From Candidatus Thorarchaeota archaeon (GTDB lineage: Archaea > Asgardarchaeota > Thorarchaeia > Thorarchaeales > Thorarchaeaceae), in assembly GCA_003345555.1 (NCBI GenBank), contig PRDJ01000013.1:1-13686 (forward strand): a DNA stretch of 13,686 nucleotides. The letters run 5' to 3'. A program made the translations under genes and the position numbers. Below, one piece after another: positions 1 through 12,962 of the stretch. Under the pieces are notes generated by a model. That model had not been told where the DNA came from. It searched no databases and worked only from the letters and a program-made list of their open reading frames with translations. Positions within the stretch are counted from its first letter, which is position 1. The number at the start of each line of letters is the position of its first letter.

Positions 1-106
1 TTGTACTGCATCTGGAGAGATATCAAGCTTTGTTGCCACCACGGTCCTGCTTGTCGATCTCTCTGGTCATACAAGCACCGAAGTCATGATGACTGGCGTC
101 TGAACA

Positions 107-144
107 CTCTGGACTCGGTCGTTCGAATCGACCCCCTGCTACTA
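107..144 (+). repeat. tRNA-iMet 3'-half fragment, copy 1
   Basis: CTCTG GACTC GGTCG TTCGAAT CGACC CCCTGCT A CTA: perfect 5-bp T-stem with TTCGAAT loop, then an acceptor-like strand; followed by pyrimidine tract TTTCTCTAGTTCTCTGG. Confidence 0.85.
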
Positions 145-288
145 TTTCTCTAGTTCTCTGGTCGTGCATCTTCCTACTTGACAGCAATGGAGAAAAGGAA
201 GGGGGCCAAACACCGGTGGTACTCCAGAACTGGACATGATAGGGGACACAGCACATGCGTCTGACCCCACCTTTGCTGCGGTGATGAA

Positions 289-654
289 ATGGGAAAACCA
301 ACGATTCTCCTGAAACGGATCTACGACGAGCCGGCCTCGACGGATGGCGTACGGTTCCTCGTGGACAGGTTGTGGCCACGGGGGATCAGCAAGGAGCGGG
401 CCCGGCTGGATGCCTGGCTGAAGGAGGTGGCGCCCAGCGATGAGCTTCGCCGCCGCTACCACCACGAGGCGGAGCTCTGGACCGAGTTCCGAAAGCGGTA
501 CTTCAAGGAGCTCGACGCCAATCCAAAGGCTTTGGACCCAATCCGCGAGGCCCTGAAGCGCGGTCCTGTCACCCTCCTCTTCGCGGCCAAGGATCCAGAG
601 TTCAACAACGCTGCGGCCCTTCGCGATTACCTGCTGGAGCACCTCACGGAGTAG
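289..654 (+). CDS. DUF488 family protein (YeaO-like)
   Basis: Motifs KRIYD..., RFLVDRLWPRGISKE, WLKEVAPSDELR, VTLLFAAKD..FNNA typical of YeaO/DUF488; GGTGA Shine-Dalgarno at 280-284. Confidence 0.92.
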   Translation: MGKPTILLKRIYDEPASTDGVRFLVDRLWPRGISKERARLDAWLKEVAPSDELRRRYHHEAELWTEFRKRYFKELDANPKALDPIREALKRGPVTLLFAAKDPEFNNAAALRDYLLEHLTE

Positions 655-703
655 AGGCGCCACGGCTACGGCCCGAGCCTTCGCCGCGAGCTAAAGAGTG
701 AAA

Positions 704-740
704 CCCCGAGATTGGTCGTTCAAATCGAACCCCGCCACCA
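704..740 (+). repeat. tRNA-iMet 3'-half fragment, copy 2
   Basis: CCCCG AGATT GGTCG TTCAAAT CGAAC CCC-GCC A CCA; ends in CCA; preceded by GAGTGAAA. Confidence 0.85.
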
Positions 741-919
741 CCTTTCTTTGGTACGTTCGAGAGTGCTCGATTGCAGCGCTGAAATCAAGAGTCATCGCCT
801 GCCGCGTGTAGGTGCGGCTTCTGTCGACGGATATTCAGAACCGCGCTGCGAGTCGGCACATCAGCAGGTTCCGCATTCAGCCGGCGAGCCCATGAGTCCA
901 CTACTTCGCACGATTGAGA

Positions 920-1819
920 CTACAGAGCACCGAAATATGTGATGAAGAAGAGCATGTCTGCAATTGCGTGAGATAGCACAGCTCCCCAGATACTGTCTGT
1001 CTTCTGGATCGTGTACCCCCATAGAAGGCCGAGAACAAACGTAATGAAGACAAAAGCCGCGAGCGCAACAAGTCCCAAGAATGGCAGCAGTGGTGCATGA
1101 AAGGCCGCGAAAACAACGGATGTGAAGATAAGCGACGCTCTGGGTCCGAACAGAACCTCATACTTTCTAAGAAATAGCCCACGGATAATCAGTTCCTCCA
1201 TGAAGCTGTTTGAGAATGCGAATATGAGCATCCATGGAATCCAACCGACCAGCATGCCGATTCCTACGCTTATGGCAAAGCCACCCATTCCAGCGAACAG
1301 CACCAGTTCTACGGGAACAGCGGCGAATCCAAGCAGAAGCCCCTTCACCGGGTTTCCACCTGTCACATAAAGCGATGCAAGATTGTCTCCGGCTGCTGTG
1401 ATCAACACGATGACGGTCAACACAATCGGTAATACCTCGGCGAACTTCGCAGCCGCAATTCCCGCTGGAGAATCGACCGTAAGACCCGGAATCAGTTCGT
1501 ACCAGCCGCCGAAGAGCCAAGCGAACAGAAATCCGAGGGCTACTGCGGCAAACGAGTACGCTATCTTGGAATAGATTCGTGGAGCTCTTCTGTAAAGAAT
1601 GAACGCTACAACAAAAAGACCAGTTGCCACGATTGTCTTTGCTATCAGCCTCGTAGTAGCATCCATGAAGTAGTTGTAACCCGCGATCGTATAGACCAAA
1701 ACGCTCGTCACGAATAGCAGTACGAAAAGGATGATGCGTACCCCAAGACTACGTCTGGCCAGCATTGTCGCGTTCACGCTGTCTGGATTGTGATTGCTCG
1801 TGGTCGGTACCTCTGACAT
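920..1819 (-). CDS. CPBP family (CAAX/Abi) intramembrane glutamic endopeptidase
   Basis: Multi-TM protein with SFMEELIIRG (EExxxR), FAAFH and HAIAD motifs; ATG at 1819 preferred because GGTGA lies 8 nt upstream (ORF track starts at GTG 1831). Confidence 0.9.
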   Translation of the reverse strand: MSEVPTTSNHNPDSVNATMLARRSLGVRIILFVLLFVTSVLVYTIAGYNYFMDATTRLIAKTIVATGLFVVAFILYRRAPRIYSKIAYSFAAVALGFLFAWLFGGWYELIPGLTVDSPAGIAAAKFAEVLPIVLTVIVLITAAGDNLASLYVTGGNPVKGLLLGFAAVPVELVLFAGMGGFAISVGIGMLVGWIPWMLIFAFSNSFMEELIIRGLFLRKYEVLFGPRASLIFTSVVFAAFHAPLLPFLGLVALAAFVFITFVLGLLWGYTIQKTDSIWGAVLSHAIADMLFFITYFGAL

Positions 1820-2029
1820 TCTTCGTTTCACCCTGCTTCATGAATGAATCCTAGACCAAACCTTCGAGCCCAAAGGCCACCTATTTATCATCTCTGGTTC
1901 GCCGCATATCCTTCTTGATTCCTTCGGCGGTGCATGCGAAGCAAGGTTCGTTCAATTCTCTCCCTTACAGATAATCACAATGTCTCTCAGGACTGATAGG
2001 CTTCGCTCATTGCGAGCTTTCGAAAGAGA

Positions 2030-2067
2030 CCCTGAGACCGGTCGTTCAAATCAACCGCCCGCTACCA
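2030..2067 (+). repeat. tRNA-iMet 3'-half fragment, copy 3
   Basis: CCCTG AGACC GGTCG TTCAAAT CAACC GCCCGCT A CCA; 2 differences from the array consensus. Confidence 0.92.
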
Positions 2068-2141
2068 TCCTCTATAGTTCGTCTGCCAAGAACGGTTCGT
2101 TCATATGTTTGAAGTACGGTGAACATGATGAGGAGTTCATA

Positions 2142-2564
2142 TTGGCGACTTCTGGCAAGTGGCTCTGCAACCTCATCGGGGGTCTCGATGAGAATGTTGA
2201 CAATGAGATACTGAAGAGAGTTCTTGAGGACTGCGGCAGAAAGTGTCAGTCCCAGAGCACCATAAGGAGAGCAAGGGCGATCTACGAGAAGTCCAAAGAT
2301 GTCGACACGTTTCTCACGGAGCTTGGAAAGACCGTCAAGCATCTTCACAGAGAGAAGGGTGGCACCTATATTGTGTACCCGAGATGCTACTGCACCCGTG
2401 TCAACAAGATACCTCAGGGCCAGATGCCGGCGATCTACTGCAACTGCTCTGTCGGCTGGGCCAAGGCTCTCTTCGAGGGGGCACTTGGAAGACCAGTTGA
2501 GGTCACTCTACAGAAATCGATTATAGCTGGAGATAGTGAGTGCCGATTCAAAATAGGACTATGA
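2142..2564 (+). CDS. DUF6144-like Cys-rich protein (V4R/ATC-hydrolase-like fold, probable metal binding)
   Basis: CGRKC, YPRCYC, YCNCSVGW and C-terminal SIIAGDSECRFKI motifs; probable TTG start at 2142 with GAGGAG 6 nt upstream; the ORF-track extension to 1980 reads through repeat copy 3 and is probably spurious. Confidence 0.75.
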   Translation: MATSGKWLCNLIGGLDENVDNEILKRVLEDCGRKCQSQSTIRRARAIYEKSKDVDTFLTELGKTVKHLHREKGGTYIVYPRCYCTRVNKIPQGQMPAIYCNCSVGWAKALFEGALGRPVEVTLQKSIIAGDSECRFKIGL

Positions 2565-2676
2565 GAAAGACATAGGAATCAAGCGCCGTTAGGTTTCTTT
2601 CTGGTCTACGAGTCCGGCAAGTAAGGCGATGCGTAGAGGCGAATTCTGAAAAGCCAGGAAACGAAGGGGTCGCACT

Positions 2677-3312
2677 ATGCCTAAAGACATCCATGGCTTA
2701 CTTGCCGGAAAATGGGAGAACGGCACTAGACCCAAGGATGTGTACGCGCTTTACGTTTCCAAGACGCCTGAGGCCTACCTCGACACCATCATCAGCGGAT
2801 TTCAGTCACCAGAAGCCAGAGTCCGAGACGGATGTACAATACTAGCTTCGCTTCTGTCGGAGGACCGCCCTGCGCTGCTCTATCCGTTCGTCGATCTCTT
2901 CCTGAACAACTTGGATTCAAAGGAACCGGTGACACGCTGGGAAGCCGTATGCACGGTGGGCAACCTCGCAGCCGTTGACAAACAACACAGGATTCCAGCC
3001 GCCGCGAAACGTATCATTCCATACCTGCGGGATAAGAGCATCGTGCTTCAAGGACACTCTGTCCGGGCGCTCGGCAAGATTGCCCGCGCCAACCCTGAGA
3101 AGGGCGCCGAACTCCTTGACGCTGTAACCAGTGCAGCTGATGCCTTTCCCGGGAACCGTGTCGGCTTTGTCATTGAAGCGATGGAGTACTTCCTAGAAGC
3201 CAAGCCGCTGCACCCCAAGGTGCGCGCATTTGTGGAGCCCTACTTGAAGAGTGATGTCAACGTCGTAGTGGCGAAAGCCAAGAAGTTACTGAAGCGCATC
3301 CCATCCGCCTAG
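2677..3312 (+). CDS. HEAT/ARM-repeat protein
   Basis: Repeated helical units such as FLNNLDSKEPVTRWEAVCTVGNLA and IIPYLRDKSIVLQGHSVRALGKIA. Confidence 0.8.
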   Translation: MPKDIHGLLAGKWENGTRPKDVYALYVSKTPEAYLDTIISGFQSPEARVRDGCTILASLLSEDRPALLYPFVDLFLNNLDSKEPVTRWEAVCTVGNLAAVDKQHRIPAAAKRIIPYLRDKSIVLQGHSVRALGKIARANPEKGAELLDAVTSAADAFPGNRVGFVIEAMEYFLEAKPLHPKVRAFVEPYLKSDVNVVVAKAKKLLKRIPSA

Positions 3313-3351
3313 CTCAACACCGTTCAACGCAAATCGGATGGTGGAGCACGC

Positions 3352-3358
3352 TTTATTA
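3352..3358 (+). promoter_or_regulatory. Candidate archaeal TATA box for the acyltransferase gene
   Basis: TTTATTA about 35 nt upstream of ATG 3393. Confidence 0.4.
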
Positions 3359-3392
3359 GACTCAGGAGAATGCATGCGTTTCGAAAAACAGG

Positions 3393-4643
3393 ATGAGCCA
3401 TTCTGACACAGACATACCCAAGAAGCAGCGGTATCTCTTCCTAGACAATATTAAGGTCCTCTTTACAGTCCTTGTGATTTACTGGCATGTGATGGTCACC
3501 TACGTTGAATCGGGTTGGTGGTACTACAAAGAGGCTAATCCTGTCGATCCTGTGAGTTATGTTCTCCTTCTGTTGTTGGTCTCAATCGGAGGCATACTTC
3601 AGACCTCTCTTCTGGGACTGTTCTTTCTGCTGGGCGGCTACTTCACTCCTGGCAGTTACGATCGAAAGGGGGGCTATGATTTCTGGAAAGACCGACTCAT
3701 TCGTCTCGGTATTCCTCTTCTCCTTTATGTCACATTGATTAACCCCCTGATGGTTTATACCCTATCCAAGCTAGGAATTGCCCCTTGGAGTACCAATCCA
3801 ACACTACAGGGGTCTCTGCAGGATTACTATCTCAGCAAATTCCAGTCATGGGATGAATTCGTAGGCTTTCTGACATTCGCGGGGCCCATGTGGTTCTTGT
3901 CCTCTTTACTGATTCTGACTGCAATCTACACTCTTTGGCGTCAGATTGCCAGAATAGATTCGATAAAGCAGAGAATCCCAAAGGAACTATCTATCCCGAG
4001 GTTTCCCAGTCTACTCCTTCTAGCCATTGTCTTGGGAGTCCTCACTTTCTTGATTCGCATAGTCCTACCTATAGACGTACGGCCGCTGGAAATACCGTGG
4101 GGTCAGCTAATTCAGTATCTCATGATGTTTTCTTTTGGTGTTGTTTGCGTTCGCTACCTTTGGTTCGAAAAAATGACTAGGAAGCATGTTAGGATTTGGT
4201 CAGCTGCGATTGTGGTCGCAGTTGCGTCAATCTATCTAGACTTCTTTCTCATTCGGGGAATGAACCCAGACCTCAGTGTGTTTTCGGGAGGGGCCAGTTT
4301 CCATGCGTTTCTGTTTGCAGTCGCGGACACTATCATATGCATGGGAATGATCTTCGTTGTGATCAAGGTCTTCTATGCAAGATTGAACAGACAAGGACCT
4401 ATACTCCGGAATCTATCCGCTAGTGCGTATCATATGTACCTCGTTCATCCACCTGTCCTAGTTGCTCTGTCCTTGGCATTCTCGTTGCTGACACTTAATC
4501 CGATTCTGAAGATAGGTCTCGTATTTCCATTGGCGCTTCTGATCTGCTATCTGGTAAGCCACTATATACTTCGAAGAATACATCTGAATAGGCAGAAGTC
4601 AGCGAGCCGAATAGCAAGCCCCGACTCTGTTCAAGAACTATGA
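3393..4643 (+). CDS. Acyltransferase family 3 (OpgC/MdoC-like) membrane acyltransferase
   Basis: RYLFLDNIK..LVIYWH, LFFLLGGYF, DRLIRLGIP, GPMWFL and SAYHMYLVHPP motifs; about 10 TM segments. Confidence 0.9.
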   Translation: MSHSDTDIPKKQRYLFLDNIKVLFTVLVIYWHVMVTYVESGWWYYKEANPVDPVSYVLLLLLVSIGGILQTSLLGLFFLLGGYFTPGSYDRKGGYDFWKDRLIRLGIPLLLYVTLINPLMVYTLSKLGIAPWSTNPTLQGSLQDYYLSKFQSWDEFVGFLTFAGPMWFLSSLLILTAIYTLWRQIARIDSIKQRIPKELSIPRFPSLLLLAIVLGVLTFLIRIVLPIDVRPLEIPWGQLIQYLMMFSFGVVCVRYLWFEKMTRKHVRIWSAAIVVAVASIYLDFFLIRGMNPDLSVFSGGASFHAFLFAVADTIICMGMIFVVIKVFYARLNRQGPILRNLSASAYHMYLVHPPVLVALSLAFSLLTLNPILKIGLVFPLALLICYLVSHYILRRIHLNRQKSASRIASPDSVQEL

Positions 4644-4813
4644 GACGCTATACTGTCTCCTTCGGACTCCCGATTTGATGCGAGCAGGAGATTCTCCCTT
4701 TAAGGCTAGTATCGTTGAGCTGTCAATGACGTTCCCGGAACAAATGCGCCACCCGCACTCTATGCCTCCTTCAATAAGAGGATTGGGCCGCCGTGAAAGC
4801 CTGCGTGATGAAG

Positions 4814-4825
4814 GAAACCTATAAG
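4814..4825 (+). promoter_or_regulatory. Candidate BRE/TATA promoter of the methyltransferase gene
   Basis: GAAACC-TATAAG about 35 nt upstream of TTG 4861. Confidence 0.5.
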
Positions 4826-4860
4826 CGAATTCAACAGAGGACGAGGCCATAGCGTATGCT

Positions 4861-5700
4861 TTGAGTGCGGTGTACGAGATGCCGGGCAATCGAAATCTGG
4901 ATGAAATCGGGTACTACGACTACGCAGCAACAATGGGAATACCGTACTTCCATTGGGGTGGCCTAAGCGCGTCGGATCGGATTGCTGAGTTGCTCGCAAT
5001 AAACAACAATACTCGGGTCCTCGTGGTGGGTTGCGGTACCGGATATAGCGCCTGCAGAATTGCGAAGAACACGGGTTGTCATCTGATAGGGGTGGATATC
5101 TCAGCTGAGATGATTAAGGGGGCGCAGAAGAGAGCCACTGAATGGGGTCTCGAAGACCATGTTGAGTTTCGGGAAGGCAATGCATACAAGCTGGATTTCC
5201 ATGATGCCGAGTTTGATGTGTTGATGACCGAGTTCGTGTCGGTCTTTCTGGAGAGGCCTCGTGTTTTTCGCGAGTTTGTAAGGGTGCTCCGACCGGACGG
5301 AAAACTCGGCGTAAACGAGCTCTTCCTCGCAGACGAGATACCCGCAGAGGTAAGGCCGAAGATTGAGAGAGCACTGGAAGGATTCGAACAGGCTGTCGGA
5401 CTTCCGATAAATATTCCCACAATGTCTGAATGGAAGACGTACTTCGCCGAGGCGGGTTTGGGGAGCATAAGTCAAGAGATAGTTGACTACAAATATAGAA
5501 TTCGTGAAACGAAGAATACGATGGGAGGGACTTGGAGGCTGCTCCGTATCATTGGTCGAGTCACATGGGACATGGCCTCGAACGGCGATTTCCGAAGACG
5601 GATGACGCCCATAGGACGGCTGAGTGGCGTGTTGGTGCGGAATCGTGAAACCAGAGGTTACGCAGGAGCTGTCATCTGCGTCGGTACAAAGCCTGCATGA
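4861..5700 (+). CDS. Class I SAM-dependent methyltransferase (Methyltransf_11-like)
   Basis: VLVVGCGTG motif I, GVDIS motif II, FHDAEFDVL, VRVLRPDGKL; start TTG 4861 or ATG 4879. Confidence 0.92.
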   Translation: MSAVYEMPGNRNLDEIGYYDYAATMGIPYFHWGGLSASDRIAELLAINNNTRVLVVGCGTGYSACRIAKNTGCHLIGVDISAEMIKGAQKRATEWGLEDHVEFREGNAYKLDFHDAEFDVLMTEFVSVFLERPRVFREFVRVLRPDGKLGVNELFLADEIPAEVRPKIERALEGFEQAVGLPINIPTMSEWKTYFAEAGLGSISQEIVDYKYRIRETKNTMGGTWRLLRIIGRVTWDMASNGDFRRRMTPIGRLSGVLVRNRETRGYAGAVICVGTKPA

Positions 5701-5762
5701 ACGAATTGGTGTCGAGTAAATCATCATGTTGGGTCGACTGGAGTTAGTCATCTTTGGAGGCG
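5701..5762 (+). pseudogene. Stranded degenerate copy of the 5' end of the ICMT-family gene (7360-7421)
   Basis: Ungapped 62-nt alignment with 50 identities; encodes MLGRLELVIFGG versus MLSRLELIVFLG, then diverges. Confidence 0.75.
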
Positions 5763-5825
5763 ATGACTGTAGTTCCGTGAGTTTCGGCCCCGGAGAAAGA
5801 GATGCATCCGTGACCTTGTTACTTC

Positions 5826-6467
5826 TCATGAATTGATGCCTGCTAGTGCATCCTCAAGCTGCTTTACTCTCTTCACAAGCTCCTTTCTTTTGTATTTGTC
5901 AGCCTCGGCTGCCTCAGCGACTCTCCGCAGCGAATCAACAAATGAGGTGTCCTTCCCTGCGGCTTCCAAATCCATGTTTCTCATCCGTGACTCTGTGTAT
6001 CTGTGTAATAGATACGCAAGGGGCCCCGCAAATAACAAGAGAGCGCTGGATAGCACAACCAGACCCATCAAAATCGAGAATGATTCATATTCACCAAGAT
6101 ACTGAACGACAGCTGCTGCTATTGCACAGGATAGTGCAAATCCAACAGGAAGAAGAAACAAAACATAGACGGCAGCCGTCGTCCGATCCGACAATCGATT
6201 CCGCTTCGTCTGAAGATTGACATATGAAATGAAGTCGGAGTCGCCCAGTGCATACACCTCCCATTTCTTGAGCATGATGATTTCCCTCTCGTCCTTGTCG
6301 AGCACATAGAATGGGTCATCAATGCCCTCCTTCTCCCAGCGCGCGCGCCTCACCTCGCATTCCGCATATCGGGGGTCACTCTGAAGGACCCTCTCCATCG
6401 CCTTACACTTCTCGTCCTTGTACCAGTGTCCCCACTCTAACTCAGATACATCAATCTCGACTTTCAC
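5826..6467 (-). CDS. Hypothetical membrane protein (soluble N-domain, 2 TM helices, charged helical C-terminus)
   Basis: Long ORF with two hydrophobic segments; probable GTG start at 6467 (ORF-track start TTG 6488); BRE/TATA upstream. Confidence 0.75.
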   Translation of the reverse strand: MKVEIDVSELEWGHWYKDEKCKAMERVLQSDPRYAECEVRRARWEKEGIDDPFYVLDKDEREIIMLKKWEVYALGDSDFISYVNLQTKRNRLSDRTTAAVYVLFLLPVGFALSCAIAAAVVQYLGEYESFSILMGLVVLSSALLLFAGPLAYLLHRYTESRMRNMDLEAAGKDTSFVDSLRRVAEAAEADKYKRKELVKRVKQLEDALAGINS

Positions 6468-6505
6468 GCTACGGTCCCTGCATGTCAATTGAAACTTGAA
6501 CGAGT

Positions 6506-6517
6506 ATTATAGTTTCG
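6506..6517 (-). promoter_or_regulatory. Candidate BRE/TATA promoter (CGAAAC-TATAAT on minus strand)
   Basis: Minus strand reads GCACGAAACTATAATACTC just upstream of the 5826-6467 gene. Confidence 0.55.
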
Positions 6518-6622
6518 TGCAACCTAGAGCGCAGATTCAAGAACCACAACATGGGCCTGCGCTCAGGAGTCAACAGAAATCATAAAAATGGCGCGACTCC
6601 GCAAGACCGAGGGTTATGTTGA

Positions 6623-7195
6623 ATGAATGATAGACCACGTGGCCTGATTGTTTACGGCACCACCTTTGGTGCGACGAAGGGAACCTCTGAAGAAATCGCA
6701 AGAGTACTGCGAGAGCAGGATTTCGATATCAAGGTCGTCAATGCGCAAGAGGAGAAAATCAAAGACATCTCAGATTACGAATTGGTCATTGTCGGGAGCA
6801 GTCTGGCTAATTGTAGATGGAACGGTCATGCAGAGGATTTCCTAAAGAAATTCCGCAAGGAATTGGAGCAAAAACAGTTTGCTCTGTTCGTATCTTCCGT
6901 AGCAGCAATTTCTGAAAGAGAAGGAAATACGGATGAAGTTGCCAAGATACGCAAACTTGCCCTGGAGGACAAAATATCAAAGTACGGTCTCAAGCCCGTA
7001 ATGACAGCTTTGTTCGGGGGCATCTTGAACTACAACAAGATGGGGCTCGTGACACGTAAAGGGATGGAAGTAGCCTTCATGTCGCGACTTCAGAACAATG
7101 GGTTCAAAGAGACTGAACCCGGCGTCTATGATTTGCGTGATTGGGACAAGATTCGAAGCTGGACAAGAGAACTTGCCAGAAAGGCGCGAGAATAG
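6623..7195 (+). CDS. Flavodoxin-domain protein (Flavodoxin_5/HemG-like)
   Basis: LIVYGTTFGATKGTSEEIA FMN-binding loop, YELVIVGS, ALFGG.LNY and DLRDWDKIRSW motifs. Confidence 0.88.
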   Translation: MNDRPRGLIVYGTTFGATKGTSEEIARVLREQDFDIKVVNAQEEKIKDISDYELVIVGSSLANCRWNGHAEDFLKKFRKELEQKQFALFVSSVAAISEREGNTDEVAKIRKLALEDKISKYGLKPVMTALFGGILNYNKMGLVTRKGMEVAFMSRLQNNGFKETEPGVYDLRDWDKIRSWTRELARKARE

Positions 7196-7384
7196 GTGCA
7201 CCGGAACAGGAACATGCTGCATACGATTCAGACGTGGGCAGCCAATCTCATGCCACGGTCACGCCTAGGCCGTCAGACTGTTTAAAGACATCAAGGGCAA
7301 TCTGATGCCAAAGTGTGCGACATCCCTTAAATCCAAGACAGGAGAATAACATGACACACACGATTTGGTGTTGAATTAATCATC

Positions 7385-8044
7385 ATGTTGAGCCGGCTGG
7401 AGTTAATCGTCTTCTTAGGCGTGGTTCCGATTCTTGTTCTCGTTGCTGACAAGATTGTGGGCCGTATAAGAGACAATCAGCTCCCTGCGGGCTCGATAGT
7501 CTTGGCGACGCCTATACCCGAGACTGCACACATAAGGCCTGGAACGCGGTGGACCCAAGTCGGAACTACGATTGTATTCATGGGGAATATGATGCTCACT
7601 CTTTTTGTCGCAATTGCGAGTATCTTTGACTTCTGGCTAGTTCTTCCCCAAGTGCTCTTTATCCATCTGCCAGTCTGGGTGAACTGGTTGGGAATCGTGT
7701 TTGGTCTAGCAATGGACCTGATAGGAATTGTAGTTCGGTATTATAATGTGAATTACAGAGCAGTATTCAATGACTTGAAGGGAAAATACGTGTTGGCCAC
7801 CGGAGGGCCGTACAAAGCAGTCAGACACCCAATATATAGTGCCACATGCGGTCTGACCATTGCAATTTTCTTGATAACAGAATTCTGGCCTCTCCTCTTG
7901 ACCGTATTGTGCTGGGGGGCTCTGCGAAAGCAAGCAATCTATGAAGAACAAACATTGCGAACAATCTTCAAAGAAGAGTACGAAGCGTATTACGTTAGAA
8001 CCGGGCGTTTCTTTCCACTATCCCTGAATAGAACGAGAAAATGA
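7385..8044 (+). CDS. Isoprenylcysteine carboxyl methyltransferase (ICMT/PEMT) family membrane protein
   Basis: LATGGPYKAVRHPIYS and EEQTLRTIFKEEYEAY...TGRFFP motifs; several TM helices. Confidence 0.9.
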   Translation: MLSRLELIVFLGVVPILVLVADKIVGRIRDNQLPAGSIVLATPIPETAHIRPGTRWTQVGTTIVFMGNMMLTLFVAIASIFDFWLVLPQVLFIHLPVWVNWLGIVFGLAMDLIGIVVRYYNVNYRAVFNDLKGKYVLATGGPYKAVRHPIYSATCGLTIAIFLITEFWPLLLTVLCWGALRKQAIYEEQTLRTIFKEEYEAYYVRTGRFFPLSLNRTRK

Positions 8045-8047
8045 GAA

Positions 8048-8092
8048 CTCATGACCCTGAAACCGGCCATTCAAATTGACTGCCCGCCACAA
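8048..8092 (+). repeat. tRNA-iMet 3'-half fragment, copy 4 (retains anticodon loop)
   Basis: CTCATGA CCCTG AAACC GGCCA TTCAAAT TGACT GCCCGCC A CAA; CAT anticodon at 8050-8052; starts 3 nt after the ICMT stop codon. Confidence 0.85.
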
Positions 8093-8177
8093 CCTTCTCC
8101 GGCTTCCTCGGACGCGTCATCTCAGATGCTATCTGCTGCGGACTGTGAGCATGCCGGGGTGACTGCTGATGGAGCAC

Positions 8178-8381
8178 TTAGGGAGGTCGTGCGTCTGCCA
8201 TCGCTTTGGAGGCGGGCTTACCCCCGACACCCCAGTGGGTCTTTGGAATCTCATGAATAATGACTTCGACAGCTCGCTCAGGGATTCCTAGCTCAACAAA
8301 GACCTTGGTGATCCCCGAGATGATTCGCTCTGCAGCCTCATCCGACAGGCCTTTCCACATCTTGACGTCAACACTTGGCAT
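8178..8381 (-). CDS. 4-oxalocrotonate tautomerase family protein
   Basis: MPSVDVKMW (Pro-1 after Met removal), VEVIIHEIPKTHWGVGG; 67 aa from ATG 8381 (ORF-track extension to 8432 unlikely). Confidence 0.92.
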   Translation of the reverse strand: MPSVDVKMWKGLSDEAAERIISGITKVFVELGIPERAVEVIIHEIPKTHWGVGGKPASKAMADARPP

Positions 8382-8608
8382 ATGTTGACCTTGGACTACA
8401 GCTATTAAATGGCTCTGACAGACTCGTCCCACGGTAATGTCGGAGTGGATGTGCCTCTATTGGCACGCTTATATGGGAATTCGCGGGACCTCTAAGGATA
8501 CGTCTGAGTTCCTGGCGGCAGCGGAAGTTGAGAGAAGACTCTCTACCGAGCCAAGTCGGGACTCACGCCAATTAGACAGAAGAAACGAGTCGAAAGGAAG
8601 TGACCGTA

Positions 8609-9040
8609 ATGAGTAATCAGATACAGAGACCGCGCGAAGCCTACATTATCTCCATCCTGAGCGGAATAGTCATACTCATCGGAGGTGTGCTCTGGATCGC
8701 GCTGGCGGGAGTGGCATGGCCGCAGGGCTGGTTTGATTGGTTTGGTGGGTATATGCACGGCTTTGAGGACCACATGTTCTTCTGGTTCTCCGGCAGCTTC
8801 GATTATGCGATAGGTCTGGTAGGATTGGTTTCAGGTGTTGGCATCATACTAGCGTCCACCATGCTCATCAGGCGACCTAGCGAACACGGTGCCTGGGGTC
8901 TTGTGATAATAGTCCTCTCAATCATCGGCATGATGGCTGGAATGGTGATCGGGCTCCTCCTAGGAATCATAGGTGGTATTCTCGCCATCTTGTGGCAGCC
9001 TCCAACACCGGTCTCGGCCGGGGCGGTTCAGCAGGCATGA
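8609..9040 (+). CDS. Small multi-pass membrane protein (DUF6114-like)
   Basis: Gly-rich TM helices such as LSILSGIVILIGG, GLVGLVSGVGIILA and GLLLGIIGGILAILWQP; ATG 8609 or GTG 8600. Confidence 0.75.
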   Translation: MSNQIQRPREAYIISILSGIVILIGGVLWIALAGVAWPQGWFDWFGGYMHGFEDHMFFWFSGSFDYAIGLVGLVSGVGIILASTMLIRRPSEHGAWGLVIIVLSIIGMMAGMVIGLLLGIIGGILAILWQPPTPVSAGAVQQA

Positions 9041-9316
9041 AGCATGAACTCGTGTCTGGTCCCATGACTCTCTGAGTCTGCATACGGTCTGCGTACTTAC
9101 CGTGCAGAAGAGCCAGAAGCTCACCGCGTCATAACACACAGCGAACGCGGGGCGACCCGAAACATGTACCAGTTCGTGAACAGTATCATGATTAGAGAGT
9201 TTCATGGGATACAGACAACGTGGTCCGATTGAGGGAGCAGGAGTTGCCTATGCCCCGCAGGTCTAGGTTAGCATCACACTTGGAACACGCCACAGACGTT
9301 GTTCAGGAGTGAAACG

Positions 9317-9354
9317 CCCTGAGACCGGTCGTTCAAATCGAGCCCCCGCTACCA
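9317..9354 (+). repeat. tRNA-iMet 3'-half fragment, copy 5 (closest to consensus)
   Basis: CCCTG AGACC GGTCG TTCAAAT CGAGC CCCCGCT A CCA; preceded by GAGTGAAACG, followed by pyrimidine tract. Confidence 0.92.
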
Positions 9355-9492
9355 CTTCACTTATTCTCTGGAATCACAGGGACAGACTTGGCTGTACGGG
9401 AAATGTCGCTCGGCATTCCTGTGATTGATTGGATGTCCCGAATTCGATGAAACCTATGAGGATGTTGAGCCGCCTCCCAGAAACGACTTCGA

Positions 9493-9960
9493 TCATGAGC
9501 CAGCGTGTCTGTTTGAGCGACTACGCGCCTCAAAGCGACTCAGATTGGAGAGCACTCTTCTCAGATAGTCTTCGAAGACATCAATCTCGGCTGACGTGAA
9601 GCCAGAATATGTAATCCTTGTCATCTCATCTGAGACCTTCGTATACCTCTCGAACATCCTTTTCGTCTTGTCTGTGAGCCGGACATTGGTAACTCGTCTG
9701 TCCAGATCTGAAGCAACGCGGTCTAAGTGTCCAGAGGATTCAAGCACGTCCAGCATCTCGGTCAACGTGGATTTACTCAGACCAGTTCTTTCGACGAGTT
9801 CCTTGATGGCCAGTCCGTCTTCTCGCCATAATGTGTAGAGTATACGTCCCTGTCCGGGACGGGTTTCAATGCCATACTCGCTCAGCTTCTTGGCGAATAT
9901 CCTCTTGGCGATATGATGGATTTTTGTGATTAGGAAGCCGCCTTGTGTATGCTTACTCAC
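9493..9960 (-). CDS. MarR family transcriptional regulator
   Basis: GQGRILYTLWREDGLAIKELVERTGLSKSTLTEMLDVLESSGHLDR...DRRVTNVRLTDK is a MarR wHTH; GTG start at 9960 with GGTGA upstream, overlapping the stop of the upstream gene. Confidence 0.92.
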   Translation of the reverse strand: MSKHTQGGFLITKIHHIAKRIFAKKLSEYGIETRPGQGRILYTLWREDGLAIKELVERTGLSKSTLTEMLDVLESSGHLDRVASDLDRRVTNVRLTDKTKRMFERYTKVSDEMTRITYSGFTSAEIDVFEDYLRRVLSNLSRFEARSRSNRHAGS

Positions 9961-10423
9961 TTCTGTCACCAATGACGAACTTGTAGGTGTGGTCTTGGTT
10001 CCAGCCGCGCCCCAAATGCGGAAACAGGCGAAGGACTGTGTAGTCTGGATCATCGCACCCGGTCGGGTAGTATCGTTCCATTCCTTCTAGCCAGAGTGAC
10101 TTCTTGACCCTCGGATCATCTACTATCTCTATCAGCCCGCTTAGCATAAGCCCACGCGATTCCTCTGGCTTGCAGTAGTATACAGACACGCCGGGGTGAA
10201 CCCTGATGTCTGCAACTTTGGATGAAGATGTGTTCGTAGTGAAGTACAGCATGAAATCCCTCCTGTGGCTCCTGAAGAGGTGTGCGAGCTTGGGAAATTG
10301 GTCTCTGTTTCTCGTGTTGAACATGGCCCTTGTCTGTGGGAAGCCTTCTGCATCTACTGTAGTAAGGTAGGCAGCCTTGGAACTGCCCATTAGTTCAAGC
10401 GCCATCTCTCTTTCTTCTTCCAC
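9953..10423 (-). CDS. Pyridoxamine 5'-phosphate oxidase family (FMN-binding split barrel, general stress protein 26-like)
   Basis: AYLTTVDAEGFPQTRAM, YFTTNTSSSKVADI...P.VSVYY and YYPTGCDDPDYTVL motifs; AGGAG upstream of GTG 10423. Confidence 0.9.
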   Translation of the reverse strand: MEEEREMALELMGSSKAAYLTTVDAEGFPQTRAMFNTRNRDQFPKLAHLFRSHRRDFMLYFTTNTSSSKVADIRVHPGVSVYYCKPEESRGLMLSGLIEIVDDPRVKKSLWLEGMERYYPTGCDDPDYTVLRLFPHLGRGWNQDHTYKFVIGDRSE

Positions 10424-10437
10424 CGAGATTGCTCCTG

Positions 10438-10476
10438 AAATAGTTCGGTATTGGACAGTCCATTTCCGAACTATTT
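10438..10476. promoter_or_regulatory. 39-bp palindrome, probable MarR operator overlapping the PNPOx-marR promoter
   Basis: AAATAGTTCGG-TAT-TGGAC-A-GTCCA-TTT-CCGAACTATTT: perfect 11-bp outer arms and 5-bp inner arms; overlaps minus-strand TATA-like ATAAATA. Confidence 0.75.
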
Positions 10477-10524
10477 ATGTTCTCCGCTCACCGCAACATA
10501 AACATGTGGTCTTGACATCGAAAC

Positions 10525-10561
10525 ACCAGAGATCGGTCGTTCAGATCGACCCCCGCTACTG
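10525..10561 (+). repeat. tRNA-iMet 3'-half fragment, copy 6
   Basis: ACCAG AGATC GGTCG TTCAGAT CGACC CCC-GCT A CTG; perfect T-stem; preceded by GAAAC, followed by TTTCTTGTAG. Confidence 0.85.
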
Positions 10562-10611
10562 TTTCTTGTAGCATCTCGGCAAATCCTCTGAACTGTCTCC
10601 GAGTAGCAGGA

Positions 10612-10899
10612 TTATGTTCTTCCTAGGTCGAGAAACTTCCCATCCATCACACGAGCGATGTACTGGCGCCCTCTCATCACCCACATTATCTGATGACCCT
10701 CTTTTGCCAGTTGAGCCCACCGTGATTCCTTGTTGGGGTTCTGTTCAATGAAAGTCAGCCCTTCTATCTCAACCGACCTCAGCTTGCTCTTTGAGGTCTT
10801 CTCGATGAGGTAGGTCGCTCCCTCGACCTCGACGGAATCGCGCCTCTCAAAGATGGCCGCATAAACCTTGAGGGCAGTCTCTCTCAAGTCCTCCGACAT
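10612..10899 (-). CDS. Hypothetical protein (95 aa)
   Basis: Compact ORF with globular composition, GGAG Shine-Dalgarno and TATATA box about 37 nt upstream; no family recognised. Confidence 0.75.
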   Translation of the reverse strand: MSEDLRETALKVYAAIFERRDSVEVEGATYLIEKTSKSKLRSVEIEGLTFIEQNPNKESRWAQLAKEGHQIMWVMRGRQYIARVMDGKFLDLGRT

Positions 10900-10936
10900 C
10901 ACGTGTTTCTCCAGACCCTGATTGAACCCCGAGGCG

Positions 10937-10949
10937 ATATATAGGTTCG
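10937..10949 (-). promoter_or_regulatory. Candidate BRE/TATA promoter (CGAACC-TATATA on minus strand)
   Basis: Minus strand reads CGAACCTATATATCGC upstream of the 10612-10899 gene. Confidence 0.5.
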
Positions 10950-11024
10950 ATGTCTTTGAATCGGAGCACTTATCAGCTTCTACGGGTTTTGTTCTGGCTT
11001 AAGCATCGATTGCAGGGGATTGCT

Positions 11025-11396
11025 GTGAGAGCTTCTAGGAAAGTGTTCAGAACAATAGATGAGTACATTGTTACTTTTCCTAGGAATGTCCAGGTCATCT
11101 TGAAAGAACTGAGGCGAACCATCAGGGATTCGGCGCCTGAAGCAGAAGAGGCGATTACATATGGAATGCCTGCTTTCAAATTGAACGGGAACTTGGTTTT
11201 CTTTGCAGCCTTCAAGAATCATATCGGGTTCTATCCTACTCCGTCAGCTATTGAGGCATTCAAAGAGGAATTGTCTGATTATGAAGTAAGCAAGGGTACA
11301 ATCAGATTCCCTATGAATAGGCCGGTCCCATTAGACTTGGTAAGGAGAATTGTGGCATATAGAGTCAAGGAAAACCAGGACAGAAAGAAACGCTAA
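11025..11396 (+). CDS. YdhG/DUF1801 family protein (iron-chaperone-like)
   Basis: IDEYI...LKELRRTIRDSAPEAEEAITYGMPAFK..GNLVFFAAFKNHIGFYP...SKGTIRFP; probable GTG start at 11025 after AGGGGA (ORF track starts at 10950). Confidence 0.92.
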   Translation: MRASRKVFRTIDEYIVTFPRNVQVILKELRRTIRDSAPEAEEAITYGMPAFKLNGNLVFFAAFKNHIGFYPTPSAIEAFKEELSDYEVSKGTIRFPMNRPVPLDLVRRIVAYRVKENQDRKKR

Positions 11397-11507
11397 CCAC
11401 TGTGGCCTATCGAAGTTCGGAGAGTCGACTTGGGAGAGTACATCTCTGTTACTCCCATGACGACGTATAGTGGAATATGATATCACGGGAATCCTGCAGA
11501 CGGGTTT

Positions 11508-11948
11508 TCACCTATCCTTATGTGCCCTTGGTCCGCGCTTGCCTTTCCTAGCAGCTCTGAGCTTCCCAAGTCTTAGCTTGTTCTCATATGGCTTGATGAA
11601 GAAGTTGTAATCGGCATCAGGAATGTCTGCCCCGACCCTCTGTTTTACCTCCTCGTATACAACAAGCCGTTGCCTGAGCTTGTTGCAGAGATAGTCCTCG
11701 CACAACGAACAGTTCTCCAGCTGTTTCGCAATCACGCAAGGCCTCACCGGGCAGCTCTTATCGATTAGGTAGGGATTTTGAGACATGCATCCATCACAGC
11801 GTATCTCTGAGGGCGGCAACCGAAAGCCGAAGTACTTGAACCATCCATCGCTTAGGACCTGCTGGTTAGAGGGATTCCTCTCGATGTTGGGAGCATAAGC
11901 AAGACAAAGATCACAACGATAGCCGCATCTCGTGAGAATCGGTTCCAT
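11508..11948 (-). CDS. DUF3795 domain-containing Cys-rich protein
   Basis: CGYRCDLC ... CDGC ... CPVRPC ... NCSLCEDYLC cysteine pattern. Confidence 0.85.
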   Translation of the reverse strand: MEPILTRCGYRCDLCLAYAPNIERNPSNQQVLSDGWFKYFGFRLPPSEIRCDGCMSQNPYLIDKSCPVRPCVIAKQLENCSLCEDYLCNKLRQRLVVYEEVKQRVGADIPDADYNFFIKPYENKLRLGKLRAARKGKRGPRAHKDR

Positions 11949-12136
11949 GTTCTGTCCAGCCGGCGTTCATTGTTTACTACATTCGCCATTTATGTGTAAT
12001 CTCACGAGCACATTCACTTGGGTCTATTTCGGAAAATTGCATCTTGGGTATCTCGTTCACACCGCATACGCCCTCTAAATCGTACTTGAAAAAGAAAGGA
12101 TATACGCGTCAAGCAGCATAATCAGTTCGACATTAC

Positions 12137-12769
12137 ATGTCAGGTGAATGGACTCAGAAAGAGCTAAAGCGAATCGTCAATAAGTACACCGCTGTTACAA
12201 TTCCAGTTGGCATATCTATTGTTGGGAATAATCGTATTCTGAACATGGACGGCGCGGAGAGCGTACTAAAGGGTGCAAGTATCATCGCCGTAAGTAGATG
12301 TGGATGTCGTGAACGCCTCAAGAAATGTGACAGACCAATTGATGTCTGTATAAGCGTGAATCGAGCAGCTCGAGACGGCATCAGGAAAGGTACTGCAAGG
12401 GAAATCAGCCTACATGAGGCACTTGATGTTCTGAAGCTAACTAATGAGGCGGGACTGGTCCACGTGACCTACACAGTCAAGAACCGCAACGAGCTCAGTG
12501 TGATCTGCAGCTGCTGTGCATGCTGCTGTCATAATCTTGCAGCAATGGCAAGGTTCGGAATGCACGATGCCGTAGTGAAGTCCGACTATGTATCGGTTAA
12601 CAGCCAAGAACTGTGCACAGACTGCGGCATCTGCATTGACCGGTGTCAGTTCGGGGCTCGTCAGCTGCAGGATGGTTCGCTAGTCTATGACGAAACTAGG
12701 TGCTTCGGATGTGGGGTTTGTACCAGCACATGCCCTTCGGGGGCAATATCCCTCAGGAAGAGGGTCTAA
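12137..12769 (+). CDS. 4Fe-4S binding (ferredoxin-domain) protein with N-terminal Cys-rich domain
   Basis: CTDCGICIDRCQFGA and CFGCGVCTSTCPSGA ferredoxin motifs; N-terminal CGCR..C..P..VC and ICSCCACCC. Confidence 0.92.
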   Translation: MSGEWTQKELKRIVNKYTAVTIPVGISIVGNNRILNMDGAESVLKGASIIAVSRCGCRERLKKCDRPIDVCISVNRAARDGIRKGTAREISLHEALDVLKLTNEAGLVHVTYTVKNRNELSVICSCCACCCHNLAAMARFGMHDAVVKSDYVSVNSQELCTDCGICIDRCQFGARQLQDGSLVYDETRCFGCGVCTSTCPSGAISLRKRV

Positions 12770-12801
12770 GGCCGGTCGTCTAAATAGAACGCCCGCTACC
12801 A
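12764..12801 (+). repeat. tRNA-iMet 3'-half fragment, copy 7 (most degenerate)
   Basis: GTCTA AGGCC GGTCG TCTAAAT AGAAC GCCCGCT A CCA; overlaps the ferredoxin stop codon; followed by TTTCCTCTTCC. Confidence 0.75.
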
Positions 12802-12821
12802 TTTCCTCTTCCTGCCCAACT

Positions 12822-12962
12822 GCGGGATATATCCAAATCGAGAAGAAATTCGTCGAACGCAAGCCGCTAACCGTCATCCATCTCACCGAAGCCGGGCGTG
12901 CGGCCTTCCGGATCTACCAGCAGAAGATGAAGCACATGTTTGAGGGTCGAGAAGCGAAGTAG
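12822..12962 (+). pseudogene. 5'-truncated winged-helix transcriptional regulator (HTH_34/ArsR-MarR-like), C-terminal half only
   Basis: AGYIQIEKKFVERKPLTVIHLTEAGRAAFRIYQQKM matches the wing and terminal helix of small wHTH regulators; no start codon or HTH helices between repeat copy 7 and this segment. Confidence 0.72.

Follow-up and report, generated by a model that had tools for sequence, protein, structure and literature searches.

The stretch of DNA analysed here (the window) is 13,686 nucleotides long. It is an entire contig, C13, of the genome of a Candidatus Thorarchaeota archaeon (G000), and both of its ends are contig ends. An earlier note on its letters had described seven + strand copies of the 3' half of an initiator tRNA (tRNA-iMet) that divide the contig into gene modules. 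All seven were recovered at the same positions with nhmmer (envelopes with E values of 1.8e-9 to 2.1e-12). Copies scattered across the genome would have pointed to a dispersed repeat instead; in the 2.28-Mb genome of the window, all seven are confined to C13, and the next-best match has an E value of 2.7.

The copies correspond to nucleotides ~38-76 of an initiator tRNA of the archaeal type, followed by about 10 nt of trailer. Their initiator character shows in the T arm (GGTCG/TTCAAAT/CGACC), in the acceptor strand CCCGCU, from which the pair A1:U72 can be deduced, in CCC at 39-41, and in an encoded CCA. A congener has an intact, intron-bearing tRNA-iMet (G003:C10:4598-4739) to which the copies align; in the window itself, ARAGORN finds no tRNA. 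The repeat is shaped like a classic integrase att site, consisting of the 3' portion of a tRNA in which the T and anticodon arms form inverted repeats, a likeness that counts against the break-repair reading given below.

All seven fragments are on the + strand. Fragment 1 (102..149) is a short form with an intact T stem, in which CCA has become CTA (nhmmer E 2.7e-10; 50 bits with covariance model R1). Fragment 2 (699..745) has a 1-nt deletion, a T-stem mismatch, and an anticodon-stem strand, CCCCG, that matches other genera. Fragment 3 (1981..2071; nhmmer envelope 2025-2071, E 2.3e-12) is a long form with the remnant of an intron hairpin at 37/38, and is 78% identical over 87 nt to the intact gene at G003:C10:4653-4739. 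Fragment 4 (8045..8097; envelope 8051-8097) is intronless, starts in the anticodon loop with G37 (CTCATGACCC), and has one T-stem mismatch. Fragment 5 (9312..9358; E 2.1e-12) retains the 3' end of an intron, GGAGTGAAAC, and has a T-stem mismatch. Fragment 6 (10521..10566; 27 bits in the covariance model) has a 1-nt deletion and CTG in place of CCA. Finally, fragment 7 (12759..12806) has two T-stem mismatches and a mutated T loop, and overlaps the stop codon of a Fer4 gene. As had been claimed, the fragments next to the stop codons at 8044 and 12769 abut or overlap them. T-stem mismatches occur in five of the seven copies, and CCA is lost in the remaining two. Since none is pristine, the array in the window is degenerate and probably inactive.

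The fragments bound six complete cassettes, and the gene calls of the earlier note for them are upheld by Pfam. Cassette A (150..698) holds a DUF488/YeaO gene (289-654, +; PF22752/PF04343). It has 83% nucleotide identity to G002:C42:18595-19150, and the match begins within a fragment in both genomes. Cassette B (746..1980) holds an Rce1-like CPBP membrane protease (920-1831, -; PF02517), which recurs as a single-gene cassette between two fragments at G002:C22:2513-3832, with 84% nucleotide identity and other neighbours. Cassette C (2072..8044) is 6 kb long and has seven genes: DUF6144, HEAT, Acyl_transf_3, a SAM methyltransferase, a membrane protein (-), flavodoxin, and PEMT/ICMT. Only its methyltransferase recurs in G002:C22, inverted and at 83.5% identity. 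Cassette C probably represents fused cassettes whose intervening fragments were lost, as observed at metagenome locus L160 in comparison with G002 and L209.

Cassette D (8098..9311) encodes a tautomerase (8178-8432, -; PF01361), whose segment has 91% identity to G002:C42:2401-2694, and a small membrane protein (8600-9040, +). Cassette E (9359..10520) consists of a MarR regulator and a PNPOx-like protein, both on the - strand (PF01047, PF16242). Cassette F (10567..12758) has a hypothetical gene (-), DUF1801/YdhG, DUF3795 (-), and a Fer4 protein. Its hypothetical gene is 86% identical to G002:C22:2072-2470, and its Fer4 gene is a single-gene cassette at G003:C10:23606-24278 (73%). A further cassette starts at 12807..13686, with an ORF of no family (12986-13684) that is open at the contig end. 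At the other edge, 1..101 (-) weakly resembles DNA that, in G002 and G003, precedes the fragments found after a recurrent Zn-ribbon membrane-protein cassette; on this weak nucleotide motif, such a gene would extend past the left end of the contig.

Arrays of this kind are found in all four genomes of the genus, with 5 to about 32 copies each. In a covariance-model scan of 87 Thorarchaeia genomes, those of the genus had 7, 28, 15, and 5 copies and other Thorarchaeia had 0-4, mostly 1. No other tRNA of G000 has more than 1-3 extra copies. A further 234 fragments came from a metagenome scan, at 80 loci (543 kb), and at every locus the fragments are co-oriented, with mixed strands at none. The intact, upstream, + strand tRNA-iMet that the note predicted is present at six metagenome loci and in G003, a long-read congener. 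In G003, it has two introns and is co-oriented with the fragments.

Over 201 intervals, the median fragment spacing is 1334 bp (55% are below 1.5 kb), and 118 intervals (59%) hold a single ORF of at least 100 aa. The modules are therefore as small as had been proposed, too small for autonomy at a median of 1.33 kb. It also holds that attC is absent and that the genes are not co-oriented (151 lie along the fragments and 171 opposite). The 5' limit varies: the longest fragments begin where the D loop ends and the shortest at the 3' strand of the anticodon stem. The 3' limit lies about 10 nt beyond CCA. The T arm, acceptor, and CCA are all perfect in 40% of 220 distinct fragments. Coordinates and covariance-model bit scores show no gradient of quality with distance from the tRNA, and G37 is common to 65 distinct fragments, versus A37 in every intact gene seen. 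Both observations argue against simple serial accretion.

The modules are neither syntenic nor invariant among relatives, since neighbours differ in G002, G003, and the metagenome loci. One example is a 1.06-kb cassette that runs from fragment to fragment at 98% identity in G002:C42, L181, and L209, each time with different neighbours. Likewise, CPBP, YeaO, hypothetical, and Fer4 cassettes recur in G002 or G003 among other neighbours, and their homology ends at fragments. Breakpoints of variation coincide with the repeats, as the note had expected of a capture system: of 956 internal ends of homology, 46% fall within a fragment compared with 6% for random positions, an enrichment inflated by near-duplicate metagenome contigs. 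The core flanks of G000 are 83-85% identical to those of G003 and 73-77% identical to those of G002. Cassettes common to G000 and G002 are 83-91% identical, closer than the core flank, which indicates lateral exchange. In 35 near-identical pairs, the point of divergence ranges from the T loop to past CCA. This variation fits recombination by homology; all of the pairs bar one also fit a crossover fixed at the T loop or ahead of it.

The window is thus very probably part of a gene-cassette array which, in a Thorarchaeota genus, has the single initiator-tRNA gene as its anchor and whose cassettes recombine at the 3' copies. Most cassettes consist of one gene, which may point either way; they have co-oriented tRNA 3' copies as boundaries, measure 1.3 kb at the median, and carry no integrase. 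They are gained, lost, reordered, and exchanged between species through recombination inside the copies.

The earlier note had proposed an archaeal gene-capture platform served by a tyrosine or large serine recombinase acting in trans. Shuffling at the fragments bears out the platform, while the recombinase was not found in this genome or in the arrays. Searches of G000 for PF00589, PF16795, and PF00239 gave no match. A six-frame search reading through stops revealed no integrase in the arrays of G000-G003, and no recombinase recurs among 149 non-redundant metagenome-array ORFs. In all, about 0.64 Mb of arrays with 286 fragments yielded neither an integrase nor a remnant of one.

The only nuclease-like gene linked to the anchor belongs to a module of a HerA-like ATPase, a LAGLIDADG endonuclease-like protein (X), and a winged-helix protein (Y). 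X has two LAGLIDADG-type motifs, whose acidic residues are conserved in the alignment, and long extra fused domains. The top PDB fold matches of its AlphaFold model (pLDDT 85.6) are all LAGLIDADG homing endonucleases or WhiA. The order X, Y, tRNA-iMet occurs in G003, G045, G021, G017, and six metagenome loci, with the HerA-like ATPase gene preceding X in five loci.

In each array-bearing locus with a visible anchor, the module is directly upstream of tRNA-iMet. Fragments occur at seven of the eight X-Y-tRNA-iMet loci with enough downstream DNA and in none of seven genomes with a convergent arrangement, a correlation drawn from related genomes that are not independent. G017 has X, Y, and the tRNA with no fragment within 6 kb, and G006 has a fragment with X not nearby. 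Searches of the assemblies of G000, G001, and G002, in which the tRNA-iMet anchor is unassembled too, revealed no X, Y, or HerA-like gene. Paralogues of X adjoin tRNA-Tyr (G003:C16) and 5S rRNA (G100:C110), with no arrays downstream. These observations count against the nuclease model that follows.

The agent may be a homing-type endonuclease together with host repair, rather than a recombinase. In this model, X, encoded outside the cassettes beside the HerA-like ATPase and Y, would make a double-strand break in a tRNA-derived site. Host homologous recombination, not site-specific strand exchange, would then mend the break, with any of the other copies of the site serving as template. In this way, a cassette between two copies could enter any array by copying, be deleted from one, or change its place there, and the displaced 3' part of the tRNA would remain as a fragment. 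This mechanism is proposed tentatively, its chances falling somewhat short of even; anatomy and mechanism taken together are judged on balance probable.

Another model, possible but more doubtful, is site-specific recombination in trans by an integrase of the tyrosine or serine type that a virus, plasmid, or unbinned element would encode. The 3' part of tRNA-iMet would be attB and the cassette copies attP- or attC-like, as in integrons or CIME-type elements. The repeat has the right shape for this, running from the anticodon or D-arm region to just past CCA, strictly co-oriented and with the intact gene at one end. Most near-identical pairs that share the upstream cassette are identical at least to the T loop, as a fixed crossover would leave them; however, one pair differs across the whole fragment into the trailer. 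Tyrosine recombinases are sporadic in the family (16 of 41 genomes), which implies that elements carrying them circulate, and a carrier could be missing here, since plasmids and viruses are often lost in MAG binning. Against this stand the arrays and the genomes G000, G001, and G002, in none of which an integrase was found, the fact that the single one of G003 is unshared and sited elsewhere, and sequence scans of a viral collection, which found no copy of the site.

It is unlikely that no dedicated enzyme is involved and that circles are released by ordinary homologous recombination (RadA) between the 45-100-bp repeats and return through a single crossover. Only homologies containing the 3' end would survive, because these regenerate the essential gene. 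The variable 5' limits and divergence points agree with this, as does the missing recombinase. However, it leaves unexplained why large tRNA-iMet arrays occur in one genus when 80-odd relatives with the same tRNA mostly have one copy, and why other G000 tRNAs have so few extra copies. Unaided recombination between direct repeats should, moreover, chiefly delete cassettes.

Island accretion is more improbable still. Here full-size integrative elements or proviruses would have entered tRNA-iMet serially and decayed to 1-kb remnants, leaving the fragments as dead att scars between immobile modules. This is the standard source of tRNA 3' fragments (10.1101/2020.12.28.424599; PMC3293823), and the seven copies in the window are all degenerate. 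Against it, 59% of the intervals hold a single intact ORF and none an integrase remnant, decay shows no proximal-to-distal gradient, and two fifths of the distinct fragments are perfect. Identical cassettes joined at fragments in differing contexts, and cassettes closer between distant species than the core flank, are equally at odds with immobile modules.

The least probable reading, with hardly any chance of being correct, is that the copies are 3' halves of split or trans-spliced initiator tRNAs or tRNA-like processing signals: Nanoarchaeum has split tRNA-iMet genes and the intron 3' ends in some copies could pair with the anticodon loop, but this is already contradicted by the damaged T stems and CCA ends, by the lack of a 5' half, conserved leader, or promoter at the window copies, by the intact continuous gene of relatives, and by dozens of divergent copies per genome.

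Among known systems, integrons combine IntI, attI, and cassettes bounded by attC, and include sedentary chromosomal arrays and integrase-less CALINs. The Thorarchaeota arrays resemble them in their length, their mostly single-gene units of ~1 kb, the one anchor at the head, the strictly co-oriented boundary sites at which cassettes are shuffled and exchanged between genomes, and their accessory cargo of membrane, detoxification, regulatory, and defence genes. Unlike integrons, they lack IntI, lie behind a tRNA gene in an Asgard archaeon, and have a piece of that essential gene as boundary instead of an attC hairpin; with genes in both orientations, cassettes need their own promoters. Exchange at tRNA copies with no visible integrase would be integron-like behaviour on a different principle.

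Free-standing homing endonucleases can lie beside conserved genes, such as SegB in the T4 tRNA cluster. In Allomyces mitochondria, endonuclease ORFs bring a replacement 3' end to atp6, and in yeast HO induces the switching of mating-type cassettes. Similarly, the LAGLIDADG-type nuclease gene adjoins its presumed conserved target, and break repair can copy adjacent DNA, leave a displaced gene end and, with repeated sites, permit cassette replacement. In contrast, X is a candidate nuclease by fold and motifs, is encoded outside the cassettes, and has long extra domains and a HerA-like partner, and dozens of unrelated genes make up the cargo of the arrays.

Tandem accretion at tRNA genes is also known from the CIME-type cis-mobilizable elements of streptococcal ICEs. 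Tycheposons build islands in Prochlorococcus in the same manner (10.1101/2020.12.28.424599). In both, as here, partial tRNA copies part modules beside a full tRNA gene, some units are integrase-less and depend on functions in trans, and content turns over fast. Those systems, however, comprise integrase-bearing elements and their remnants, in units of several kb, whereas the units of the Thorarchaeota arrays are spaced at 1.3 kb and number up to about 32 per genome. A mobile-element model of archaeal tRNA gene disruption has been described for tRNA-Thr of Caldiarchaeum subterraneum (PMC3293823). There too, an insertion takes the place of part of the gene, introduces or alters an intron, and leaves a tRNA fragment stranded. 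The Caldiarchaeum case is one 1.8-kb element with its own recombinase and a stranded 5' fragment (PMC3293823), whereas the Thorarchaeota arrays consist of many recombinase-less units and 3' fragments.

The repeats of the window very probably mark an integrase-less cassette array that is anchored at the initiator tRNA gene (tRNA-iMet) and whose units move by recombination in the tRNA-derived repeats. Here, a fragment is a spare, co-oriented copy of the 3' part of this tRNA, a cassette is the unit between fragments, and the anchor is the intact gene.

The window spans all of contig C13 (13,686 bp), which comes from a 2.28-Mb metagenome-assembled genome (MAG) in 82 contigs, G000. Repeat finding and alignment recovered all seven repeat copies where the earlier note had placed them, every one on the plus strand. 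Its gene list agrees with Pfam, and two stop codons abut fragments, as it had said. Its reading of the repeat as the 3' part of an archaeal initiator tRNA is borne out by sequence features: CCC at positions 39-41, a T arm of the form GGTCG/TTCAAAT/CGACC, a discriminator A and an encoded CCA, which is followed by about 10 pyrimidine-rich bases (trailers judged by eye). The acceptor strand of the fragments, CCCGCU, implies an A1:U72 pair. The sole tRNA-Met found in the G000 assembly is an elongator with G1:C72; an intact tRNA-iMet is absent from it, and no tRNA is called within the window.

None of the seven copies is pristine, since T-stem mismatches occur in five and the CCA is lost in the other two. 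With seven degenerate sites, and with machinery not detected in the assembly, the window array looks inactive or decaying. A profile of the seven copies matches only the C13 sites in G000 (E-values from 1.8e-9 to 2.1e-12), and the confinement of all copies to this contig, with the next match at E 2.7, rules out a dispersed tRNA-derived repeat of the SINE or MITE kind. A split or trans-spliced tRNA is contradicted, as all seven copies have defects in the T stem, acceptor or CCA; no 5' half for such a tRNA was found in the G000 genome.

The earlier note had predicted an intact, co-oriented tRNA-iMet upstream of the fragments. The anchor is unassembled in G000, as it is missing in three of the four MAGs of the genus, and an ENA contig with the same genes reaches only about 190 bp beyond the window. 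The predicted arrangement is seen in the long-read congener G003 and alike in six metagenome loci. On contig C10 of G003 (120,138 bp), an intact tRNA-iMet at 4598-4739 is followed downstream, on the same strand, by 14 fragments across 22 kb. The far side of this array is syntenic with contig C3 of G000 at 83-85% identity; thus the array is an insertion between tRNA-iMet and a conserved flank.

Two introns interrupt the G003 gene: the first in the D loop, the second, of 30 nt, at 37/38. The longest fragments start at the 3' strand of the D stem, and short ones at position 39 or inside the intron. Some fragments retain the 37/38 intron, with a sequence that differs each time and a preserved hairpin, and many are intronless. 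The third copy of the window (1981-2071) aligns over 87 nt to the intact G003 gene, intron sequence included. Most tRNA genes of G000, of which only 29 were detected, bear introns, and the tRNA-iMet of relatives has one or two (G003:C10:4598-4739; loci L145, L149 and L215), very different in sequence between close populations and with hairpins kept.

Arrays are concentrated in one genus. A covariance model of the 38-nt core, run on 87 Thorarchaeia genomes, finds 7, 28, 15 and 5 copies among the four members of this genus, and 0-4 copies in all other genera, mostly one that is the gene itself; every genome compared is a MAG, that of G000 lacking the anchor. In the congener G002, a more permissive profile finds 27 copies on a single 32.7-kb contig plus five on a second. 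For the other tRNAs of G000, extra 3' copies number one to three at most. Public metagenome contigs, a sample drawn by an intronless pattern and including near-duplicates, contribute 234 more fragments at 80 loci (543 kb); many of these contigs are multi-copy, one of them being 184 kb long.

Mixed-strand loci do not occur among 286 fragments. The intervals from fragment to fragment (n=201) have a median of 1334 bp and a minimum of 438 bp, 55% being shorter than 1.5 kb, and 118 of the 201 contain a single ORF of 100 aa or more. ORFs face either way relative to the fragments (151 co-oriented, 171 opposite). Arrays also matter for annotation: they break short-read assemblies and so may conceal part of the accessory genome.

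The same cassettes recur in different surroundings. The CPBP gene of the window forms a single-gene cassette between two fragments on contig C22 of G002, at 84% nucleotide identity and with other neighbours. The YeaO unit starts within a fragment both in G000 and on contig C42 of G002. The Fer4 gene of the window is a lone cassette in G003, and the hypothetical gene stands at the left end of a cassette in the window and at the right end in G002. Another cassette, of 1.06 kb, is found from fragment to fragment at 98% identity in G002:C42 and loci L181 and L209, where neighbours and spacings differ. Homology ends inside fragments at 46% of 956 internal ends versus 6% for random positions; near-duplicate contigs inflate the figure, and the enrichment is a large effect despite this. 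Mapping crossovers from the ends of BLAST segments was uninformative, as the segments extend through the entire fragment because fragments resemble one another.

Boundaries can also disappear. In locus L160, a 589-bp piece with a fragment stands between two genes that adjoin each other in G002 and L209, so fragments can be lost, fusing two cassettes. Such loss and fusion probably explain the 6-kb, seven-gene module of the window (2072-8044). The L160 piece (7401-7989) is an indel made up of a small antisense ORF and one tRNA fragment, absent from G002:C42 and L209. At the junction in those two, no fragment remains and there is no flanking repeat; the L160 fragment came or went by some means other than recombination between fragments.

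In the core flank, G000 shares 83-85% identity with G003 and just 73-77% with G002 and G001. Cassettes common to G000 and G002 are 83-91% identical. Because these shared cassettes exceed the core flank in identity, sequence comparison indicates that cassettes are exchanged laterally within the genus. Fragment quality, by model scores on G003:C10 and G000:C13, shows no gradient with distance from the tRNA. Position 37 is G in 65 distinct fragments and A in every intact gene seen. Given these fragments and the missing gradient, copies are propagated as sites borne by cassettes, and not only left one by one from the working gene.

The earlier note had also predicted a tyrosine or large serine recombinase, and this expectation was not supported: there is none in the arrays, and none was found in G000. 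Six-frame searches that read through stops did not find PF00589, PF16795 or PF00239 in G000, G001, G002 or the array contigs of G003. None of the recurrent families among 149 non-redundant metagenome-array ORFs (170 aa or longer) is a recombinase. G003 has one integrase, away from its array and not common to the other genomes of the genus; used as a query, it matched nothing in or near the arrays. This sole tyrosine recombinase of the genus (G003:C17:26565-27773, locus L137) adjoins two neighbouring pieces of an SBP_bac_5 gene, which could reflect insertion of an element into that gene or a frameshift from long-read sequencing. In the Thorarchaeia family f1, PF00589 is found in 16 of 41 genomes, and in 7 of the 20 with completeness of 90% or more and contamination of 5% or less. 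With this model, a universal Xer-type (XerA-type) recombinase is not evident in the family.

Cargo of the metagenome arrays consists of membrane proteins, small enzymes and defence-type families (for example AAA_21, AAA_15, HEPN_AbiV, REase-ARP, PLDc_2 and PD-(D/E)XK). Regions of the G003 array (C10:8330-9130, 14544-16571 and 18455-19507) and metagenome arrays encode, among other cargo, a pair of cytidine-deaminase-domain paralogues, an HNH endonuclease, NosD/beta-helix surface proteins, TPR proteins and a number of defence-type families.

Several cassette families were rejected as recombinase candidates. The 176-aa Zn-ribbon family and the recurrent families of 238-267 aa are membrane proteins, as is the largest of the metagenome families (Ig-domain/Zn-ribbon). 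Comparison of recurrent cassette proteins with PHROGs gave nothing. The gene upstream of tRNA-iMet in array-less relatives (loci L180 and L220) encodes a CxxCxxCC protein and no recombinase. One recurrent single-gene cassette, seen in three genomes, encodes a membrane protein of 176-188 aa with Zn ribbons at both ends (G002:C42:1189-1719 and 28216-28743; G003:C10:22747-23313). It runs antisense to the fragments, with a 3' end that overlaps the fragment before it. The left edge of the window (1-100) resembles the DNA before this cassette.

Immediately upstream of every intact gene that leads an array (in G003 and at six metagenome loci) is a pair of genes on its strand. They encode X, a LAGLIDADG-like protein of 580-806 aa, and Y, a winged-helix protein of about 226 aa; in five loci a HerA-like ATPase precedes X. 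X has no match in Pfam, and a profile of it has none among PDB sequences. An alignment of 22 relatives contains two LAGLIDADG-type motifs ending in D/E-G, with the acidic residues retained. The leading PDB fold matches of the AlphaFold model (pLDDT 85.6, pTM 0.82) are all LAGLIDADG homing endonucleases or WhiA (I-Tsp061I, PI-PkoII, PI-SceI, I-DmoI), with probabilities up to 1.0 and target-normalised TM scores up to 0.59. A language-model search gave the same direction. By model and alignment, X of the relatives has the fold of an endonuclease and keeps the catalytic acidic residues.

The X family is patchily distributed and multi-copy. It is present in 49 of the 87 Thorarchaeia genomes with up to seven copies, some having stops and some lying at contig ends. 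In at least 17 loci, X and Y lie within 150-400 bp of tRNA-iMet, in either of two orientations. With the order X, Y, tRNA, fragments are present in 7 of the 8 loci having enough downstream DNA. In the convergent arrangement, a second tRNA-iMet copy is present in none of 7 genomes. Convergent pairs lie just downstream of tRNA-iMet on the opposite strand in G053:C69, G055:C69, G075:C50 and G082:C1 (loci L237 and L241-L243), genomes of several genera with a single copy of the gene; between the two arrangements, the tRNA is inverted relative to X-Y.

Paralogues of X also stand directly upstream of, and co-oriented with, a 5S rRNA gene (L252, G100:C110) and a tRNA-Tyr gene (L249, G003:C16), the latter with a HerA-like gene further upstream. 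The association of the family seems to be with stable-RNA genes at large. No arrays were found beside the paralogues at these and two other loci, one genome has X, Y and the tRNA and no array, and X, Y and the HerA-like ATPase were not found in G000, G001 or G002, where the anchor region is unassembled. Paralogues without arrays, X-Y-tRNA without an array and arrays in genomes where the module was not found are all evidence against a simple link between X and arrays.

Of the engines considered, break-induced repair triggered by the LAGLIDADG/HerA module is the most likely, and it is proposed tentatively. In 35 near-identical pairs, the point of divergence lies anywhere from the T loop to beyond the CCA. 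This spread fits repair by homology, and in this small sample a fixed crossover near the T loop is compatible as well. An unseen integrase acting in trans comes second and is doubtful, as no integrase is found in the arrays or in G000-G002, and scans of the viral collection for the tRNA-iMet site, in three versions, gave no match. Homologous recombination without any aid ranks third and is improbable. Decay of ordinary integrated elements comes last, with very little probability.

In a fuller account of the break-repair engine, which is possible at best, the arrays would be an integrase-free platform. A LAGLIDADG endonuclease at the array head, with its HerA-type motor and winged-helix partner, would break the site inside an essential RNA gene. 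Host repair would then copy, delete or reshuffle any cassette flanked by copies of the site. Fast-changing tRNA introns would belong to this arms race and protect the functional copy from being cut.

Arrays resemble integrons in their shape, in the single-gene size of the units and in their shuffling. However, no IntI-type gene was found beside an array (PF00589, in G000-G002 and the G003 array contigs), and none recurs among the 149 metagenome ORFs. Integron attC sites are imperfect palindromes of 60-140 bp, whereas the Thorarchaeota boundaries are 3' parts of tRNA-iMet. Integron cassettes are mostly co-oriented, promoterless single genes, whereas those described here are randomly oriented.

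Accretion at tRNA genes, as by tycheposons or CIMEs, likewise leaves the 3' part of a tRNA in co-oriented direct repeats, the intact gene standing at one end. Yet accretion predicts an integrase or its remnant in at least some units, and none was found in the Thorarchaeota arrays; it also predicts new scars near the gene and decayed ones far from it, and the arrays have no such gradient. The arrays resemble the tRNA-anchored islands built by tycheposons (10.1101/2020.12.28.424599) and the Caldiarchaeum tRNA-Thr case (PMC3293823); these carry an integrase, unlike the Thorarchaeota arrays, which are also far denser. The papers on Asgard mobile elements that were compared describe integrase-bearing elements, aloposons and a homing-endonuclease-like insertion beside a tRNA gene, and no cassette arrays. 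A full-text literature search returned no account of such arrays in Asgard archaea.

Asgard genomes are large and gene-rich, with much acquired DNA, and the uptake and sorting of their accessory genes are hardly known. Arrays provide a concrete, recurrent route, in which one-gene units, many of them membrane, stress or antiviral genes, are lodged behind an essential RNA gene and exchanged among species. They join the logic of the integron with the landing site of tRNA-targeting elements, without the enzyme that defines either. Should the LAGLIDADG/HerA module prove to drive the arrays, they would represent a gene-capture system of a new class, an archaeal counterpart of the integron based on break repair. 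This would also tie the turnover of tRNA introns to mobile DNA, providing a natural test of the old idea that these introns guard tRNA genes against it.

Further repeats were seen in G000. Contigs C40 and C51 have 55% G+C, compared with about 51% in all others; C40 carries tRNA-Leu and, within 13 kb, three more copies of its 3' end; on C51 there is a three-copy repeat family. They may represent a further cassette array, DNA of foreign origin or an error of binning. Within the large cassette of the window, a 62-nt direct repeat (family D3, 81% identity) lies just past the methyltransferase stop (5701-5762) and across the start of the PEMT/ICMT gene (7360-7421), and may be a duplicated gene start or promoter region.
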